IMG/VR virus record: IMGVR_UViG_3300026549_000335 | Span: 1 to 16,727 of that record | Origin: a virus | Reading direction: 5' to 3' (one strand) | Length of the DNA stretch: 16,727 nt | In this document: in pieces, positions 1 to 16,727 of the stretch | Layout of the letters: the number at the start of each line of letters is the position of its first letter | Numbering within the stretch: the stretch's first letter is position 1 | The notes under the pieces: generated by a model | Database searches by the model: none | What the model was told of the DNA's origin: nothing | The model's input: only the letters and a program-made list of their open reading frames with translations | Program-made: the position numbers and the translations under genes

Positions 1-132
1 GGGGTCGTTTCGAACGTCGAGATTTTTGGTACTTCCCTAGCACTGCGCAGTGGTAAAGTGGTGACGCGTTGCAGTGGTACAGCGTTAGCACGTCAGAGTG
101 GTACCGTGAGCGCACGAAGTTAGTTGTGTCTA
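1..132. repeat. Left inverted terminal repeat (132 bp)
   Basis: The reverse complement of 16596-16727 matches 1-132 at 129/132 positions. Mismatches are at left positions 82, 97 and 111; the outer 81 nt are identical. The repeat starts GGGG. I count 66/120 G+C in the first 120 nt, against an AT-rich interior. Confidence 0.95.
27..122. repeat. Degenerate 24-bp tandem repeat x4 inside the left ITR
   Basis: TGGTAC/TGGTAA starts at 27, 51, 75 and 99, an exact 24-bp spacing. Units 1 and 3 share 16/24 positions, including TAGCAC. Confidence 0.8.
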
Positions 133-8426: not shown

Positions 8427-8458
8427 GTTTATATCTCCTTTCTTTTTATTCTATTTTA

Positions 8459-8487
8459 ATTATATCATATTACTTGAAATATTGCAA
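8459..8487 (-). promoter_or_regulatory. Late-operon promoter (sigma-A type with extended -10)
   Basis: Minus-sense TTGCAA (8487-8482), a 17-nt spacer, then TGATATAAT (8467-8459). It lies about 33 nt upstream of the holin ATG. Confidence 0.65.
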
Positions 8488-8502
8488 TATATATGATATA
8501 AT
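8474..8502 (+). promoter_or_regulatory. Packaging-ATPase promoter (sigma-A type with extended -10)
   Basis: TTGAAA (8474-8479), a 17-nt spacer, then TGATATAAT (8494-8502). It lies about 45 nt upstream of the ATG at 8548. Confidence 0.65.
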
Positions 8503-8547
8503 AAATTGAGATAATTATAGTTAATTTTAAGAAAAGAGTACAACAAT

Positions 8548-9588
8548 ATGAGTGAAAATAAATACTATGACGGAACTAAATTGTTATCAATGAAAGATAT
8601 AAACGGATTAAAACCCGAACTATTTTTATGTACCACTAATAGAAGTGGTGGTAAGACAACTTATTTTGGTAGACTATTAATCAACAGATTTCTAAAGTAT
8701 GGTAAAAAATTCTGTTTAATTTATAGGTACAACTATGAACTTGATGATGTATCTAATAAGTTCTTTAAGGATTTACAGACATTATTTTTTAGTAATTATA
8801 CTATGGAAAGTGAACGGTGTGCAAGTGGTATCTATCATAGTTTGTTTTTAAATGAACAGCACTGTGGTTATGCTATAAGTTTAAATAGCGCAGACCAATT
8901 GAAAAAATATAGCCACTTACTTAGTGATACTGATAGTATGTTATTCGATGAATTTCAAAGTGAAACTAATCACTATTGCAGTGATGAAATAAGAAAATTT
9001 ATCAGCGTACATACAAGTATAGCAAGAGGCCACGGAGAGCAGGCAAGGTATCTTCCTGTATATATGTTAAGTAATGCTGTTAGTATTATCAATCCTTATT
9101 ATACGGAATTAGGAATATCTGAAAGACTAAACAGTGAGACTAATTTCTTAAAGGGTGACGGGTTTGTACTTGAAAGTGGTTTCATAGAAACTGCTAGTAA
9201 GGCACAAAAAGAGAGTGGTTTCAATAGGGCATTTAAGAATAATCAGTATGTCGCATATTCAAGTGAGAATGTGTACTTAAATGATAACACTGCTTTTATT
9301 GATACTCCTGTAGGAAAAGGAAAGTATATTGCAACCTTAAGATATATGAACCATGACTATGCTGTGAAACAATATAGTGAGCAGGGTTTCTTATATATTG
9401 ATGATAAAGCAGACAGTACTTTTAGAGCTAAAATAAGTGTTACTGTTAATGACCATGATATTAATTATGTTATGTTAAAACAGAATGATTTATTTATTAG
9501 TCAATTGAGATACTATTTTGAAAAAGGTTGTTTTAGATTTAAGAACCTTAAATGCAAAGAAGTTTTATTTAAGACTATTAGTTATTAG
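8548..9588 (+). CDS. DNA packaging (encapsidation) ATPase, gp16-like
   Basis: 346 aa (phi29 gp16 is about 332 aa). Walker A-like NRSGGKTT and Walker B MLFDEF are present. It is the only credible plus-strand gene. Confidence 0.8.
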   Translation: MSENKYYDGTKLLSMKDINGLKPELFLCTTNRSGGKTTYFGRLLINRFLKYGKKFCLIYRYNYELDDVSNKFFKDLQTLFFSNYTMESERCASGIYHSLFLNEQHCGYAISLNSADQLKKYSHLLSDTDSMLFDEFQSETNHYCSDEIRKFISVHTSIARGHGEQARYLPVYMLSNAVSIINPYYTELGISERLNSETNFLKGDGFVLESGFIETASKAQKESGFNRAFKNNQYVAYSSENVYLNDNTAFIDTPVGKGKYIATLRYMNHDYAVKQYSEQGFLYIDDKADSTFRAKISVTVNDHDINYVMLKQNDLFISQLRYYFEKGCFRFKNLKCKEVLFKTISY

Positions 9589-9706
9589 GTATCTGCTGTT
9601 GTATGTTCACTTGATACTACTAGGAAGCACGTTTGGAAGATAACGCTAGTATGTATTGTCGTAAATGCTATGCGCTTGTGTTCTGCAATAGTTATAGATA
9701 TAGAAG

Positions 9707-9735
9707 AGGCAAGAGTATTTTACTCCTGCCTTTTT
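9707..9735. terminator. Bidirectional terminator between convergent ATPase and early/replication transcripts
   Basis: AGGCAAGAGTA ttt TACTCCTGCCT. There is one A-C mismatch in plus sense, which is G-U in minus sense. TTTTTGCTTTATTTG follows on the plus strand. It starts 8 nt after the minus-strand stop at 9739. Confidence 0.7.
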
Positions 9736-9738
9736 GCT

Positions 9739-9972
9739 TTATTTGTAAAAATGATTATGTATATCTGTTGCGATTAATATGCTCAATGATAGTACAATTT
9801 CTCTTGTATCTGTTTTCTTTATAAAATCGTATGATAAAAACTTTGCTATGTATAAACCATTTAAGCAATATTCTATTTTATACTGCTCTGTATATGGTAC
9901 ATCATAAAACTCGATTGAGCCTTTAAATCTTCTGCGTAGTTCCTGCACTACTTTTTCCATTTTATCGTTCAT
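9739..9972 (-). CDS. Hypothetical protein (77 aa)
   Basis: I prefer the ATG at 9972 (MNDKMEKVV), which has RBS AAAGGAGAG 8 nt upstream. The track start at 10053 lacks an RBS and overlaps the mini-ORF below. Confidence 0.55.
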   Translation of the reverse strand: MNDKMEKVVQELRRRFKGSIEFYDVPYTEQYKIEYCLNGLYIAKFLSYDFIKKTDTREIVLSLSILIATDIHNHFYK

Positions 9973-9976
9973 AAAT

Positions 9977-10102
9977 TTATCTCTCCTTTGTAAAATAATC
10001 ACAATCATATCTGTACTTGCAGAAACAACAAATATGATTACAAGTTTTTTCATGTTTATTTGCTTTGTATCTGTAATATAAATCTTCTAACCATGTTATC
10101 AT
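9977..10102 (-). CDS. Cys-rich mini-protein (41 aa), not in the supplied ORF track
   Basis: My hand translation gives MITWLEDLYYRYKANKHEKTCNHICCFCKYRYDCDYFTKER. A strong RBS AAAGGAGAG lies 6 nt upstream. The start overlaps the upstream stop (ATGA). Confidence 0.5.
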   Translation of the reverse strand: MITWLEDLYYRYKANKHEKTCNHICCFCKYRYDCDYFTKER

Positions 10103-10266
10103 ATTTTTCTCTCCTTTAAATGACGTATTACATCTTTAATATCTCTTTGCATAAAGTATATATCGCAATAATCACATTGTAATGGGTAATTGCATATACC
10201 GCAATTCTTATAAACTAATTTTTGCTTTTTATGATTTAGTAACATAATTAATAATTTGTTTAACAA
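10099..10266 (-). CDS. CxxC-x5-CxxC zinc-ribbon-like mini-protein (55 aa from TTG, or 48 aa from the ATG at 10245), not in the supplied ORF track
   Basis: My hand translation gives (M)LNKLLIMLLNHKKQKLVYKNCGICNYPLQCDYCDIYFMQRDIKDVIRHLKERKI. The TTG at 10266 is preceded by AGGTGA, which spans the polymerase stop codon. Confidence 0.45.
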   Translation of the reverse strand: MLNKLLIMLLNHKKQKLVYKNCGICNYPLQCDYCDIYFMQRDIKDVIRHLKERKI

Positions 10267-10272
10267 AACGTT

Positions 10273-12216
10273 TCACCTCATTTCATATGTTGTGTCCACC
10301 AATAACACACCACCTTTAATTCTTTTTGGTAGTAATTTTCCAGGGACACATAAACCAATCTTAAAATCACTGTAGTCTCTTTTTGTTTCTAAGAATTTTA
10401 ATTCACTTTGTGTATAGTTATCACTCTCCTTTGCTTCATAACCCTGCATTGACTTGTTAAATAAATCTTTACATTTCTGTGGCATACCTGCACATTTAAT
10501 ATCATTATATGGTTCGTCAACAGGAACTAAATCATTGTGAGTTATGTGTTCTATATATGTTTTCTGCCTTGTAAAAATAGCTGTGTCCCAACTGCTTTCT
10601 AATTTCCAACAACAAAATTTAACAGGGTCTACTGTTATGCCTTTTATCTTATTAGCAGGTAAGTCACAATGTATACTGTCAGTGTCAGCGTAAATAAATC
10701 CTGCTTTATCTACACCATAGTAATTTTTTTGAGCAGCTGTTATCGTAAAGTTTCGCGCATAGGATGTTATTGCACTGCCCGTTGCTATATGTCCCACCTT
10801 TTTATTATTAGCAGGGACTATATAGAAACCAATACTTTCATCCTCTTTTACATATGCAACCTTAAAACTGCTGTTGGAACTACTAGCAAGTTTACCATAA
10901 AGGTTATTGAGAAACAGTTTTGCTTCTGTACGCTTTGCACCTTTGCTATTCATTTTAATTTCTGCATAATGATTGATATAATTATCAAAAATTCCTATAG
11001 CAGAATAAAACCAACAGCCGTCTAAGATTTCAAAATCAACTAGTTCATAGTGTTTTAACATTAGTTTATAATCTGTCATGGTTATTGTCATTATCTGTGC
11101 CGTGTCTTTTATATTGCCATTAATATCTTTATAGTATCTGTTATAATTTCCATTTTTGTCTAATACATCACTAGTTGTTAATGACTCTGTGCCTTTATAT
11201 AAATGGTTACCTTTTATCTGAATAAATGGTAACATATTTTCTTTGATATAAAAGCGTGTTTTTATTCTTAAAAAGTAATATTTATTTTCGCCTATAGCTT
11301 CATCAGGTATTATATTACCTTTCCAAAAATATGGTTTACCTATCGGAAAATAATTACCACTTTGAGAGTGCATCATACTAGGATATAAAGAGTTCACATC
11401 TGCTGTTACACCATTATGTCTAACTATGTTTTCTTTTCCTTTTACTAAATAGCACCAACCACCTCTATAACTGTGACGTATATATTCGTCAGCATTTGAC
11501 GAACCATAAATATTTTTATCAAGTGTAAATTCATCAAGTGCAGGAAATAAGTCATTATAATCATAAGCACCTAGTGAGTTTTTATATTCTGCTACACAAC
11601 ATGAACCTATTGTAAGTTTATCATGTCTATCATTGAATAACTGTTCTAATGCTTCTTTAACTACTAATACGTCATTAGCTATATAACGTTTTTCGTCGTC
11701 AGTTATATTACATCCTGCATATCTATAACCATTATATTCCATGTCTAATTTTTGATGTTTTGTTTTAAAAGATTTACCTATTTGTTTTACCGAAAATGGT
11801 AATAGTTTTAAGCTATCTCTTAATTCGATAAAATGGTTATTAACTTTAATAGTAACCATATACCATTGACCCATAGATGATATAGTATATCTGAAAGTAT
11901 TATTTTTCATATATTTTTCTTTTATAAATTCACCTTGAGTGCCCTCATCATTAAATGACTCATATGCCTGTTCATATTTTAAATCTGTTAATAAATATGA
12001 TAGCCAAAAATTTCCATCAAATTTAAGGTTATGATAATAAGCTATTATGTCACACTCTAACGACTTAAAATAATTAAACTGTTCATCTATAGAATGAAAA
12101 ATTTGAACGTTCTCTGTGTATAATTCTACACTTGCACTAGCCCATACTTCTGTAGATTTTTGACCCTCATATACTGTTGTTTCAAAATCACACATAAATT
12201 TCCTATAGTTTCTCAT
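10273..12216 (-). CDS. Protein-primed family-B DNA polymerase (phi29 gp2-like)
   Basis: Exonuclease motifs: Exo I CDFETT, Exo II HNLKFDGNF, Exo III YIANDV. Polymerase motifs: A DVNSLYPS, B KLFLNNLYGK, C YADTDS, and KxY QKTYIEH. 647 aa. Confidence 0.95.
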   Translation of the reverse strand: MRNYRKFMCDFETTVYEGQKSTEVWASASVELYTENVQIFHSIDEQFNYFKSLECDIIAYYHNLKFDGNFWLSYLLTDLKYEQAYESFNDEGTQGEFIKEKYMKNNTFRYTISSMGQWYMVTIKVNNHFIELRDSLKLLPFSVKQIGKSFKTKHQKLDMEYNGYRYAGCNITDDEKRYIANDVLVVKEALEQLFNDRHDKLTIGSCCVAEYKNSLGAYDYNDLFPALDEFTLDKNIYGSSNADEYIRHSYRGGWCYLVKGKENIVRHNGVTADVNSLYPSMMHSQSGNYFPIGKPYFWKGNIIPDEAIGENKYYFLRIKTRFYIKENMLPFIQIKGNHLYKGTESLTTSDVLDKNGNYNRYYKDINGNIKDTAQIMTITMTDYKLMLKHYELVDFEILDGCWFYSAIGIFDNYINHYAEIKMNSKGAKRTEAKLFLNNLYGKLASSSNSSFKVAYVKEDESIGFYIVPANNKKVGHIATGSAITSYARNFTITAAQKNYYGVDKAGFIYADTDSIHCDLPANKIKGITVDPVKFCCWKLESSWDTAIFTRQKTYIEHITHNDLVPVDEPYNDIKCAGMPQKCKDLFNKSMQGYEAKESDNYTQSELKFLETKRDYSDFKIGLCVPGKLLPKRIKGGVLLVDTTYEMR

Positions 12217-12626
12217 ATATTATCTAAATCAGTAAACCCAAAATATTCGTTAATATCATTAGATTGTATTGCTGAAATACGTGACATATCGTGATTCGAC
12301 AGTAAGGGTATTAAATCTTCTGTTTTTGCCTGCACTACTTCTGAATATACACTTTCATTTATACTGTCTATTGCTGTTATAATTTCTGTTTCATTTTGTT
12401 GTAAATAATATTCATATTGCTCTTTTCCAAAATCTTCCTGCATTTGTTTCATAATTCCTAAAACAGTATAGTAAAAATTTTCAAGATTATAGTCTATAGC
12501 TTCACCACCATACGTGTATGTTTGCTTTTTACTAGGTAGCGCTTGCAACCTTGAAATAATACTATCTGTAACTGTATAGGTTTCTGCGCTTTGTCTTTGT
12601 GATATTTCTGTTTGTAAATCCTGCAA
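12213..12626 (-). CDS. Candidate terminal protein (137 aa), assigned by synteny only
   Basis: TTG start at 12626 with a strong RBS (GGAGAGGAGAAAAAGG). The stop overlaps the polymerase ATG (ATGA). It occupies the phi29 gene 3 position, between the SSB-like gene and the polymerase. I recognise no motif in it. Confidence 0.35.
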   Translation of the reverse strand: MQDLQTEISQRQSAETYTVTDSIISRLQALPSKKQTYTYGGEAIDYNLENFYYTVLGIMKQMQEDFGKEQYEYYLQQNETEIITAIDSINESVYSEVVQAKTEDLIPLLSNHDMSRISAIQSNDINEYFGFTDLDNI

Positions 12627-12647
12627 CCTTTTTCTCCTCTCCTCTCT

Positions 12648-12683
12648 AAATTAATAAGACCCCTGCTAACTTAATAGCAAGGG
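12648..12683 (-). terminator. Intra-operon stem-loop / partial terminator between the SSB and TP-polymerase genes
   Basis: CCCCTGCT aacttaat AGCAAGGG. The C-A mismatch in plus sense is G-U in minus sense, giving an 8-bp stem. Minus-sense UCUUAUUAAUUU follows. Confidence 0.5.
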
Positions 12684-12703
12684 CCAGCAGTAATATAAAA
12701 ATT

Positions 12704-13060
12704 TTATTTTACTGATTTTACGTCAAGTGCGCAGTCAATATAAGGTCTGCCTGCCTTTGTTGTACCGCTAACTTTGATAATACTAAACTGTTTACCGAGC
12801 ATGATGCGAGTGATGTTATTAAAACTACGCTTGAAAGTAGCTGACTGACAAGAGAATACCTCATTGTCTGGTGTAATAATTGATAAAATGCCAACACTAT
12901 CTCCGTTCTCTTTTTCATCTGTGAATGTAAGATAGCCTGCTACTGCAATGGATGTATTATCCTCTACGTCCTTGAGAGACTTAATGCCTCTATCTAATGT
13001 CATTAAATACTGCTCTACCTCTGTAAAATCCTTTGATTGTGTGTTAATTGTGATTGCCAT
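12704..13060 (-). CDS. Single-stranded DNA-binding protein, phi29 p5-like
   Basis: 118 aa (p5 is about 124 aa) with RBS AAAGGAGA. The C-terminal FSIIKVSGTTKAGRPYIDCAL resembles the p5 C-terminus as I recall it (FKVKVVQGTSSKGNVFFSLQL). It sits between the p6-like gene and the TP candidate. Confidence 0.5.
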   Translation of the reverse strand: MAITINTQSKDFTEVEQYLMTLDRGIKSLKDVEDNTSIAVAGYLTFTDEKENGDSVGILSIITPDNEVFSCQSATFKRSFNNITRIMLGKQFSIIKVSGTTKAGRPYIDCALDVKSVK

Positions 13061-13081
13061 AGTTGTTTATCTCCTTTTCTT

Positions 13082-13414
13082 TTATTCTGCTTCTGTCTGC
13101 TCTGTTGTTTCTATGCCAGCCTGCTCTGTTTTAATCTCTTTACGTGTAGCAGGGTCAAGTATTAATGCACCTGCGATAAAATCTGCTTCATCCATACCGT
13201 AAAGTTCGTTTACTTCTTTGAGTTCACGAATTGCAACGATAGTACATTCGTCAGTGTTATAAAGTTTTGATACTTTCTTTAATGCCTTGTCTTTTTCGAG
13301 AATTTTACCACTAAGTATAAAATCCTGTTCAAAAGTATCTGCTGTCTGTGGATTTACACATAACGCTTTTACTGAAGTTGAAATAATTGTACGTGTGACC
13401 ATTGGTTTTCTCAT
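13082..13414 (-). CDS. Histone-like dsDNA-binding protein, phi29 p6-like (paralog A)
   Basis: 110 aa (p6 is about 104 aa) with RBS AAAGGAGA. Three features are reminiscent of p6 as I recall it: the N-terminal MVTRTIISTSVKAL, the central ELYGMDEADFIAGALIL, and the acidic tail TEQAGIETTEQTEAE. It lies directly upstream of the SSB-like gene. Confidence 0.5.
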   Translation of the reverse strand: MRKPMVTRTIISTSVKALCVNPQTADTFEQDFILSGKILEKDKALKKVSKLYNTDECTIVAIRELKEVNELYGMDEADFIAGALILDPATRKEIKTEQAGIETTEQTEAE

Positions 13415-13517
13415 AGTTTTTCTCCTTTTCTATGTATTGTAATTTGTAATAAAGTTGTTACACACCAATAGGTGTAATAGTCAAGTTGATTTTTGCAATC
13501 TGTTTTGTGATAGCTTG

Positions 13518-13688
13518 CTATCTCTTGACTATAAAGCACGTAAGAAAATCATCTAATTTGTGACGAATTATGATTTTGCAATCGTCACGATAGATTGTTT
13601 CTGTTGTGACGTTTCGTTTATCTGTTCGACATATTACTTTGCGTGTATTAGGGTCTGTTATGAGTTGTACGAATAACGTTTCTATCAT
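13518..13688 (-). CDS. Hypothetical protein (56 aa)
   Basis: I prefer the ATG at 13688 (MIETLFVQ), which has RBS AAGGCGGTGA. The track start at 13745 is a TTG inside a stem-loop. Confidence 0.45.
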   Translation of the reverse strand: MIETLFVQLITDPNTRKVICRTDKRNVTTETIYRDDCKIIIRHKLDDFLTCFIVKR

Positions 13689-13714
13689 ATGATAATCACC
13701 GCCTTTTGAGGAGT

Positions 13715-13753
13715 CCGCACTATTGAGTGTCGTATTGACTAGCAATAGTGCGG
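13715..13753 (-). other. Perfect 11-bp inverted repeat (CCGCACTATTG N17 CAATAGTGCGG) in the 5' leader
   Basis: Direct reading. It is GC-rich relative to its surroundings and lies just upstream of the RBS for the 13688 start. No U-tract follows. Confidence 0.6.
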
Positions 13754-13849
13754 TTGTATAGTATTAAAGCAAAACGTAACTTGTAAATGGTGTAATACCT
13801 CTTTACATATTATATAGTACAGTAATAATGTAAATGCAGTATTTCTAAA

Positions 13850-13869
13850 TTATGAACATTTTATGAACT
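13850..13869. promoter_or_regulatory. Two TTATGAAC boxes 11 bp apart (candidate operator)
   Basis: TTATGAAC occurs at 13850-13857 and 13861-13868. The boxes are related to the TTGTGAACA boxes at 16528 and 16561. Confidence 0.4.
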
Positions 13870-13890
13870 TTTCCACATTTGACTTTCTGT

Positions 13891-13910
13891 AATTTACGAA
13901 AATTTACGAA
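13891..13910. repeat. Perfect 10-bp tandem duplication AATTTACGAA x2
   Basis: Direct reading, within the 177-bp intergenic region 13746-13922. Confidence 0.9.
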
Positions 13911-13922
13911 AACTTGTGTAAA

Positions 13923-14183
13923 TTATTCAAATACCTCTCTTTCTTCTACTTTCAAACGTTTGTCCATTTCTTCAATACACATTTCTGCATAATAAGTATT
14001 TAATTCATAAAGACAATTATATTCACCATACATTAAATAGTTGTAAGAATTTACTGTATTTATTAACGTCATTATATCGGACTTAAAACTTTTCATACCT
14101 GAGTATCTAATATTCCATATAATTTTCTTTACCATTCTGTATTTACGATATATTATTTTATTTTTAATTTTATAAAAGTTCAT
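13923..14183 (-). CDS. Small early protein, divergent member 3 of a tandem paralog family
   Basis: 86 aa, with RBS AAAGGAG followed by TATAAT-ATG. It has the same length and hydrophobic/aromatic pattern as the two upstream paralogs. Confidence 0.6.
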   Translation of the reverse strand: MNFYKIKNKIIYRKYRMVKKIIWNIRYSGMKSFKSDIMTLINTVNSYNYLMYGEYNCLYELNTYYAEMCIEEMDKRLKVEEREVFE

Positions 14184-14198
14184 ATTATAACAACTCCT

Positions 14199-14453
14199 TT
14201 ACGAAAAAACATCCATTTCTATCTGCTTTTTAAAATAATATGTGTCGTACTTTATAATACATTCCTGCATAAAATGTAATTCTATTGCAGTTATATTATC
14301 GTCAAAAAAATTTAAATTTACTGCATTAGTTAATAAATTTGTAATTTGCTCTAATAAATATACTGCATTAATAAAACTACACCATTTTGTTTCATATGGT
14401 TTGTAATATAATCTAATTTTACGTTCTAATGTATGTTTTCTTTTCTGAGTCAT
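14199..14453 (-). CDS. Small early protein, paralog family member 2
   Basis: 84 aa. It begins MTQKRKHTLERKIRL, against MTNKRKHQLERKVRI in the upstream gene. RBS GAGGAGA is followed by TATAAT-ATG. Confidence 0.7.
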   Translation of the reverse strand: MTQKRKHTLERKIRLYYKPYETKWCSFINAVYLLEQITNLLTNAVNLNFFDDNITAIELHFMQECIIKYDTYYFKKQIEMDVFS

Positions 14454-14469
14454 ATTATAAAATCTCCTC

Positions 14470-14730
14470 TCAATTATTTTGTGATAAATTCTTATTTATG
14501 AGTTTTTTGTAATACCAATAATATCTACTAATACAACTTAACATAAAGTTTGTTTCTCTAAGAGTCATATTACCTCTGTAATATAAATACCATGTACTAT
14601 CAAACATTAATTTTGTAATTCGTTCTAAAAATTTAATTCCAATATATTCTTCTGGATATATTATTTGATTAAAGCTAGTAAAATTTATTCTAACTTTACG
14701 TTCTAACTGGTGCTTTCTTTTGTTTGTCAT
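14470..14730 (-). CDS. Small early protein, paralog family member 1
   Basis: 86 aa. The start overlaps the upstream stop (ATGA). RBS AAGAGG is followed by TATAAT-ATG. Confidence 0.7.
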   Translation of the reverse strand: MTNKRKHQLERKVRINFTSFNQIIYPEEYIGIKFLERITKLMFDSTWYLYYRGNMTLRETNFMLSCISRYYWYYKKLINKNLSQNN

Positions 14731-15758: not shown

Positions 15759-16040
15759 TTATTTTACCTCCTTCCTGGTTTCATTGTCAAGTTCTACAGC
15801 GTACTGTAAAAACATATTCTCTGACATACCATATAGCTTTTCACTAACTTCTACATTTTCTAATTTTATAAACTTACAACTTGGATTTTCTGCAATAAAT
15901 TGCTTTTCAATTTCTTTATCAGTTGGTGCGCCGACTGTTTCAAGTACATCCTCTCTGACTTCATTATTCTCAAGGTCAAAATAAATGACCTCATATTTTG
16001 TTACCTTAATAGTTCTGGTTACCATTTTCGATTTTCTCAT
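15759..16040 (-). CDS. p6-like dsDNA-binding protein paralog B (93 aa, no acidic tail)
   Basis: I prefer the ATG at 16040 (MRKSKMVTRTI), which has RBS AAAAGGAGA. It aligns with 13082-13414: MRKSKMVTRTI against MRKPMVTRTI, and KLYGMSENMFLQYAVELDNETRKEVK against ELYGMDEADFIAGALILDPATRKEIK. The track start at 16133 runs through a terminator hairpin. Confidence 0.6.
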   Translation of the reverse strand: MRKSKMVTRTIKVTKYEVIYFDLENNEVREDVLETVGAPTDKEIEKQFIAENPSCKFIKLENVEVSEKLYGMSENMFLQYAVELDNETRKEVK

Positions 16041-16104
16041 AGTTTTGTCTCCTTTTGTTTTTGTCTTTGTTTGAATGTTACTATCTGATATTACTATCAG
16101 AGAT

Positions 16105-16131
16105 ACAAAAGAGTCGGAGTTGCACCGACTC
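16105..16131 (-). terminator. Stem-loop plus U-tract after the first early gene (loop UGCAACU)
   Basis: GAGTCGG agttgca CCGACTC (16111-16131), followed in minus sense by UUUUGUAU (plus 16103-16110). Confidence 0.55.
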
Positions 16132-16139
16132 AAGAGCTT

Positions 16140-16595: not shown

Positions 16596-16727
16596 TAGAC
16601 ACAACTAACTTCGTGCACTCACGGTACCACGCTGACGTGCTAACGTTGTACCACTGCAACGCGTCACCACTTTACCACTGCGCAGTGCTAGGGAAGTACC
16701 AAAAATCTCGACGTTCGAAACGACCCC
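16596..16727. repeat. Right inverted terminal repeat (132 bp)
   Basis: Mirror copy of 1-132, with mismatches at 16646, 16631 and 16617. The window ends in CCCC. Confidence 0.95.
16606..16701. repeat. Degenerate 24-bp tandem repeat x4 inside the right ITR
   Basis: Mirror image of 27-122, by ITR symmetry. Confidence 0.8.

Follow-up and report, generated by a model that had tools for sequence, protein, structure and literature searches.

Terminal proteins (TPs) are the least conserved component of protein-primed DNA replication, and the few that have been characterised in phages measure ~230-270 amino acids (aa). The reference for the present comparison is gp3 of phi29 (266 aa; PF05435, PHROG 6358, PDB 2EX3), whose N-terminal domain, formed by two helices joined by a loop, binds DNA non-specifically, targets the TP and the polymerase to the nucleoid and is required for initiation and amplification to be efficient (PMC4357725). 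The engineered mutant deltaNt, from which residues 1-73 have been removed, has defects in binding to DNA, in initiation and in amplification, and initiates well only with p6 (PMC4357725). The TPs of tectiviruses (PRD1 gene VIII, 259 aa; Bam35, 245 aa) come from another virus lineage and are also encoded upstream of a protein-primed family B DNA polymerase (pPolB), in genomes with long inverted terminal repeats (ITRs, ~100 bp or more). The PRD1 protein initiates by forming TP-dGMP with sliding-back, and in both PRD1 and Bam35 the priming residue is a tyrosine. Here we consider an open reading frame (ORF) of 137 aa, at positions 12213-12626 of the virus record IMGVR_UViG_3300026549_000335 (16,727 bp; this whole stretch of DNA is called the window below), which lies directly upstream of a pPolB gene. 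From its context it is probably a TP gene of an uncharacterised compact family, present in the window as an allele with an N-terminal deletion.

A 177-aa family and a 118-nt deletion

The preliminary description of the window had reported a TTG-initiated ORF coupled to the polymerase gene by an ATGA overlap, and both the ORF list and the sequence bear this out. The ratio of nonsynonymous to synonymous substitution rates (dN/dS) of its codons is 0.06-0.12 against eight relatives, and gene calling on a Logan contig from an independent assembly gave an identical 137-aa product; on these sequence grounds it is therefore a genuine coding sequence and not a chance ORF. The product is acidic and rich in hydroxyl residues, as had been described, with a net charge of -15, a pI of 4.09 and 25% Ser+Thr+Tyr.

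The normal form of the protein is longer. Among 5.8 billion proteins searched, 39 clusters with 1,000 member sequences matched, which are 85-96% identical over all 137 residues (E down to 1.5e-77), and all complete members of these clusters have 175-179 aa. Their N-termini follow the pattern MAKK(R)LTKNQK.YQ.ILDKAEQQG....GLK.FPKRITQ..L, and the "Met1" of the window protein aligns with Leu41 of the full-length homologues, in which the codon at the position of the TTG is TTG, TTA or CTA, all leucine codons. In the DNA alignments the flanking sequences (end of the gene for the single-stranded DNA-binding protein (SSB), hairpin and ribosome-binding site (RBS)) are identical, and are followed by a clean gap in the window over the ATG and 40 codons. 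With blastn, nine of nine related contigs break at window positions 12626-12638 and ~120 nt are skipped, for a net loss of 118 nt. Judged from these alignments, the 137-aa gene is a 5'-deleted allele of a 177-aa, ATG-initiated gene, and its TTG is the internal Leu41 codon. The deleted N-terminal module (N-module) was not found elsewhere in the window by tblastn or blastn-short.

The strong RBS that had been described as feeding the TTG is present, the GGAG of GGAGAGGAGAAAAAGG ending 7 nt before this codon, and its interpretation changes. Since the alignments of the relatives, which read GAGAGGAGA(A/G)(G/T/A)AAAAA(G)TATG at this place, show the RBS and then a gap confined to the window, it is the RBS inherited from the full-length gene. 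Between an in-frame TAA and the TTG there is no earlier start codon; the TTG owes this first place to the 118-nt deletion, which brought the Leu41 codon to 7 nt from the GGAG. The idea of a natively tiny, TTG-initiated TP with a strong RBS of its own is not supported, and of the claim of unusual compactness there remains the length of the 177-aa family, below the 266 aa of phi29, the size of 137 aa resulting from the deletion. The case is a warning that a 137-aa TTG gene with a superb RBS is here a deletion product and not a native design.

By core identity and genomic position the window protein falls within this unnamed 177-aa family (P0001-P0039, P0045-47, P0052-60), and the full-length architecture (ATG start and MAKK(R)LTKNQK N-module) is missing from the window together with codons 1-40. 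The more distant members have 176-181 aa, and 1.84 billion representatives, searched exhaustively with a profile, yielded only this narrow family of 176-181 aa and a single protein of 221 aa (P0051, E 2e-4). When the profile included the syntenic proteins of related phages, it gathered 122 proteins (158-221 aa), none of them on a contig longer than 17.5 kb, and all of those with a source name are labelled hypothetical.

Residues 1-40 form the only basic module of the family (pI 9.3-10.3), and residues 41-177, the core, carry a net charge of -11 to -17. The AlphaFold2 (AF2) model of a 177-aa member has a predicted local distance difference test score (pLDDT) of 76.9 and comprises a helix at 7-21, a loop, helices at 38-54 and 59-68, a beta-hairpin at 77-84, four helices across 88-150 and a disordered tail, which is aromatic and acidic in the family. 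The 137-aa form of the window, modelled from a more diverse alignment, reaches a pLDDT of 79.5 and a predicted TM-score of 0.68, with 83 residues of at least 90; the blocks covering 21-110 average 89-97, and confidence is low only in the leftover N-terminal helix and in the C-terminal tail. Five hydroxyl residues are conserved in the family, Tyr77, Tyr134, Ser150, Ser155 and Tyr168, and all are retained in the window allele. Ser150 and Ser155 stand within a near-invariant P(L/I)LSNHDMS block and, like Tyr134, at helix ends or loops of the model. In the numbering of the window protein the candidate priming residues are Ser110 and Ser115 (PLLSNHDMS), Tyr94, Tyr128 and Tyr37.

Evidence for and against a terminal-protein function

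The succession of genes, p6-like, SSB, candidate TP gene and pPolB, reproduces the 6-5-(4)-3-2 order of phi29, and by position the ORF is the equivalent of phi29 gene 3, in agreement with the preliminary description. The order SSB, candidate gene and pPolB is present in every locus examined, including those in which the syntenic proteins have 198-221 aa, and the candidate gene stands directly before pPolB in all but one of them, with proteins that have diverged beyond recognition by BLAST. In the exception, a more distant relative (L018, MT836152), a TP-like ORF of 210 aa (212-844) is separated from the polymerase gene by a 257-aa ORF (920-1693), which contains NGNN(W/H)S repeats. The ATGA overlap is kept in L003-L008, L019-L022 and L024. 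These comprise all nine close relatives, together with two of the three more distant loci checked, whose syntenic proteins have ~200-220 aa. The start of the polymerase itself is ambiguous, because a second ATG, seven codons into its ORF, is preferred by one gene caller on identical DNA. The gene is thus encoded upstream of, and adjoining, pPolB in a linear genome with ITRs, as is phi29 gene 3.

The layout of the full-length family points in the same direction. Like gp3, it combines a basic N-terminal helix-loop-helix with an acidic helical C-terminal part, and these parallel in charge the N-terminal domain (+7) and the priming domain (-10) of the phi29 TP. The helix, loop and helix predicted at the N-terminus of the 177-aa member agree with the description of the phi29 TP N-terminal domain (PMC4357725), which the deleted module resembles in charge and predicted layout only. 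Seen as a candidate priming domain, the modelled core has a net charge of -15, a pI of 4.1, packed predicted helices of pLDDT > 90 and conserved Ser and Tyr residues. The full-length family carries the basic N-terminal module, which the window allele has lost. The family differs from gp3 in its length (177 vs 266 aa) and in the absence of a basic intermediate domain, and the window allele lacks the N-module as well.

The survey of the window ORFs with Pfam and PHROGs left no other unassigned ORF of TP-like size. Every ORF of at least 195 aa but one is assigned by Pfam as a structural, lysis, packaging or polymerase protein, and the earlier remark that the window holds no phi29-sized TP is upheld. 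The one remaining, a 273-aa ORF at 1969-2790, has no Pfam hit and was rejected as a TP for its position between tail-fibre-like and connector genes; it would correspond by position to the lower collar gene, as in phi29. A TP fused to the N-terminus of the polymerase, in the style of yeast linear plasmids, was also rejected, since the window polymerase aligns with that of phi29 from residue 5 to the C-terminus (33% identity).

Similarity searches speak against this assignment, the candidate family showing no detectable sequence, profile or fold similarity to gp3. PF05435 and phrog_6358 gave no match to the 137-aa ORF, to the 177-aa members P0011 and P0016 or to the syntenic proteins, even at E <= 1-10; as a positive control, phi29 gp3 scores 1.3e-115 against phrog_6358. 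The profile comparison with the phi29 TP family that the preliminary description had suggested was equally negative: in hhalign against 40 PF05435 proteins, the 177-aa family, a set of ~200-220-aa proteins and both combined obtained a Prob of 0.3-2.6%, all below 3%. A sequence profile search of the PDB gave nothing relevant (enterovirus VP4 at E 0.04), and the candidate drew noise only from Pfam and PHROGs (DUF5008, and phrog_14389 of unknown function). With Foldseek, neither AF2 model had a PDB match at E < 0.1, and 2EX3 was absent among the 50 matches listed; the top matches were FAT four-helix bundles, a helical-bundle likeness that is generic only. The best Foldseek matches in BFVD were uncharacterised "Podoviridae sp." proteins of 215-270 aa (E 0.01-0.7), which are suggestive and not usable.

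The connection to longer proteins is a further point on this side. The hypothetical proteins at the same position upstream of the polymerase in Clostridium phage CS229P1 (WAX12002.1, 222 aa) and in the gut contigs MT835814, MT835854 and MT835904 (214-269 aa) share the N-terminal motif (K/R)LT..Q..Y...G...P and an acidic and aromatic C-terminus, and the genes of some also overlap that of the polymerase, but they are undetectable by BLAST from the window protein and carry an extra basic segment of ~40-60 aa relative to the 177-aa family. BLASTP against the syntenic proteins of CS229P1 (222 aa) and MT835814 (232 aa) was not significant, and hhalign of alignment A2 against P0062 gave a Prob of 0.2%. 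Because both comparisons are negative, what ties the 177-aa family to the ~220-aa proteins is the single HMMER match to P0051 together with the N-terminal motifs, and this link is weak. What stands of the earlier proposal of a candidate TP is therefore the position, the ATGA overlap, the ITRs and the lack of an alternative gene, and a link to a known TP was not found in any similarity search.

Proposed mechanism and fate of the allele

On balance, the best explanation of the locus as a whole is a TP of the 177-aa family, of which the window carries an N-terminal deletion allele and whose core primes the polymerase; we regard this as moderately probable. Translation would most likely start at the TTG and yield the 137-aa acidic core only; the use of this codon is a deduction, and counts as a point against the scheme. 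We propose that the core binds the polymerase and that the hydroxyl of a conserved Ser or Tyr takes the first nucleotide covalently. This would presumably be dGMP, with the 3'-CCCC end as template, and the terminal repeat would allow sliding-back. The ATGA overlap would couple the translation of the candidate primer to that of the polymerase. By analogy with the phi29 TP, the missing basic module would bind DNA and help recruitment to the origin, and because it is missing, the allele should prime less efficiently, perhaps helped by two p6-like proteins. The nearest precedent is deltaNt, also a TP without its basic N-terminus and with its polymerase-binding and priming part kept; that mutant is engineered, whereas the window allele is natural and has lost only 40 residues, which make up helix 1, the loop and the very start of helix 2.

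This precedent also feeds the alternative that survives best, in which the family are TPs and the 137-aa allele is a loss-of-function or crippled form, carried by a helper-maintained defective genome or representing a very recent deletion that has not been purged. The defects of the phi29 TP without its N-terminal domain in DNA binding, initiation and amplification point to impairment, so that the window allele could be defective (PMC4357725). The allele is moreover rare. Besides the window, the junction occurs on one Logan contig, from run SRR7971122, which is 100% identical to window 11428-14126 and so probably belongs to the same population, to be set against 1,000 full-length sequences. 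The junction had no match in IMG/VR, and its six pattern matches in the JGI metagenomes are all unrelated to the window. The motif residues of the N-module are also kept out to members of ~50% identity. Against impairment, an in-frame TTG follows the RBS at an ideal distance, an outcome that a random loss of 118 nt would not be expected to give, and the assembled genome that bears the allele is full-length and has both ITRs. The reading frame of the core is unbroken by stops or frameshifts and shows no surplus of amino-acid change, with 5 nonsynonymous and 11 synonymous differences from the nearest relative, and among close relatives the core is tightly constrained (dN/dS 0.07-0.12). The N-module (codons 2-40), with a dN/dS of 0.4-1.1 from small counts among the relatives L003-L008, L019 and L020, appears to be under relaxed or diversifying, almost neutral selection, though its motif residues persist, and may thus be dispensable. 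A crippled allele is, in our estimate, possible though somewhat doubtful.

The same features, namely the preserved RBS and in-frame start, the intact and constrained core, the complete genome and the weak selection on the N-module, speak for viability, and the rarity of the allele and the phi29 precedent speak against it. The allele could thus be crippled or dependent on a helper, or else viable as a minimal primer. That the window represents a replication-competent phi29-like phage whose TP has been naturally reduced to a 137-aa acidic core without a basic module is unlikely. If true, it would be the smallest protein primer of a DNA phage known to us, and the N-terminus, which targets nucleoid and origin and on which efficient replication of phi29 depends, would be dispensable or compensated in this lineage, for example by the two p6-like proteins.

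A more distant alternative is that the family are not TPs at all, and that the true primer is a small ORF that escaped recognition, or priming follows another mechanism. The candidate would then be a different early protein, such as a transcription regulator replacing phi29 p4, an acidic DNA mimic, an anti-defence protein or an accessory factor of replication. DNA mimicry is common among small, strongly acidic phage proteins, phi29 gene 4 also sits between the SSB and polymerase genes, and none of the searches in Pfam, PHROGs and the PDB, or by hhalign and Foldseek, gave a homology or fold match to any TP. This reading would have to account for the lack of another unassigned TP-sized ORF in the window, for the place of the gene immediately before pPolB, usually with the ATGA overlap, in every locus but MT836152, for the match of a basic N-module and acidic helical core to the charge layout of a TP, and for a polymerase devoid of a fused N-terminal TP domain; we consider it distinctly unlikely. 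It is very improbable that the deletion is an assembly or sequencing artefact and that the real genome encodes the 177-aa protein: the deletion is indeed unique among all related contigs, but the same junction recurs on the Logan contig, the missing segment has no flanking repeat long enough for collapse of the assembly graph, and the sequence at the junction is not what simply joining the relatives' flanks would give.

If the TP assignment is right, the 177-aa family would be unusually compact and unrelated in sequence to known TPs. With its confidently modelled core, it would give a minimal system for the presentation of a hydroxyl to a family B polymerase and could serve compact TP-primed amplification tools, and the window allele would be a natural experiment on the need for the basic N-terminal module.

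Genome setting and neighbouring genes

The window (31.8% GC) has nearly all of its genes on the minus strand. It appears to be a complete linear genome of 16.7 kb, from a small phi29-like podophage of the gut with protein-primed replication. Searches of Pfam and PHROGs identified the connector, the gp9 tail knob, the phi29-type major capsid protein, the tail lysozyme, the endolysin, the gp16 packaging ATPase and the polymerase. The features that bear on the argument are collected in the table.

Table. Positions of the candidate gene, its signals and the accompanying features in the window
Feature	Position	Strand	Basis or remark
Left inverted terminal repeat	1..132	.	starts GGGGTCG
gp16 packaging ATPase	8548-9588	+	Pfam/PHROGs; sole plus-strand gene
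Protein-primed family B DNA polymerase, 647 aa	10273..12216	-	PF03175 1.2e-39; phrog_1907 7e-126
ATGA overlap, candidate TP stop and first polymerase ATG	12213..12216	-	TGA 12215-12213, ATG 12216-12214
137-aa ORF, candidate TP, truncated allele (residues 41-177 of the 177-aa family)	12213..12626	-	homologues, dN/dS, AF2
Deletion junction, net 118 nt missing vs every relative	12624..12631	-	alignments A1 and A4; blastn
Shine-Dalgarno region GGAGAGGAGAAAAAGG, ancestral RBS of the full-length gene	12627..12642	-	sequence and relatives
Terminator-like hairpin then T-rich tract, between SSB gene and candidate TP gene	12658..12685	-	kept in relatives
phi29-type SSB, p5 equivalent, 118 aa	12704..13060	-	60% identity (E 1e-48) to the 118-aa protein of related locus L022
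p6-like dsDNA-binding protein, 110 aa	13082..13414	-	phrog_6370 8.5e-06
Right inverted terminal repeat	16596..16727	.	98% complementary to left repeat

Both ends of the genome begin with GGGGTCG, and the ITR measures 132 bp, as compared with the 6 bp (AAAGTA) of phi29. The GGGG start would imply dGMP initiation with sliding-back and recalls PRD1, whose termini also start with GGGG. The 118-aa protein of L022, through which the SSB was recognised, matches PF17427 (Phi29_Phage_SSB). A second p6-like gene lies at 15759-16133 (-) and also matches phrog_6370 (4e-03); its ORF probably starts at an internal ATG. The hairpin upstream of the candidate gene has 11 pairs, 6 of them G-C, is followed by TTATTAATTT and recurs in every close relative. 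Its effect may be to dampen read-through, which would keep the amounts of TP and polymerase below those of SSB and p6.

Among catalogued genomes the nearest are the Clostridium symbiosum phages CS229P1-3 and unannotated human-faecal contigs, with polymerases 45-65% identical to that of the window. Since C. symbiosum is the host of the closest isolates, the window phage probably infects a clostridial species of the gut. Megablast of the whole window, at the nucleotide level, and tblastn of the 137-aa protein each returned zero matches among 50,697 phage records. An Rfam scan of the window detected no packaging RNA (pRNA) and no other RNA family, apart from a single chance-level microRNA match. 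No pRNA is recognisable around the gp16 ATPase gene (8427-8547 and 9589-9738), though packaging of the gp16 type normally uses one.

Two regions of small genes seem to be variable. In the early region, the tandem genes at 14199-14453 (-) and 14470-14730 (-), of 84 and 86 aa, look paralogous by eye, their N-termini reading MTQKRKHTLERK and MTNKRKHQLERK, and 13923-14183 (-) is possibly a third member of the set. The relatives have a shorter segment there, with one gene of ~81 aa, so that this early region is expanded in the window. The small ORFs between the polymerase and ATPase genes (window 9739-10266 (-)) vary in number and size among the close relatives L003-L008, where ORFs of 55, 56, 62, 77, 83 and 86 aa occur in various combinations, and the interval looks like a variable cassette.

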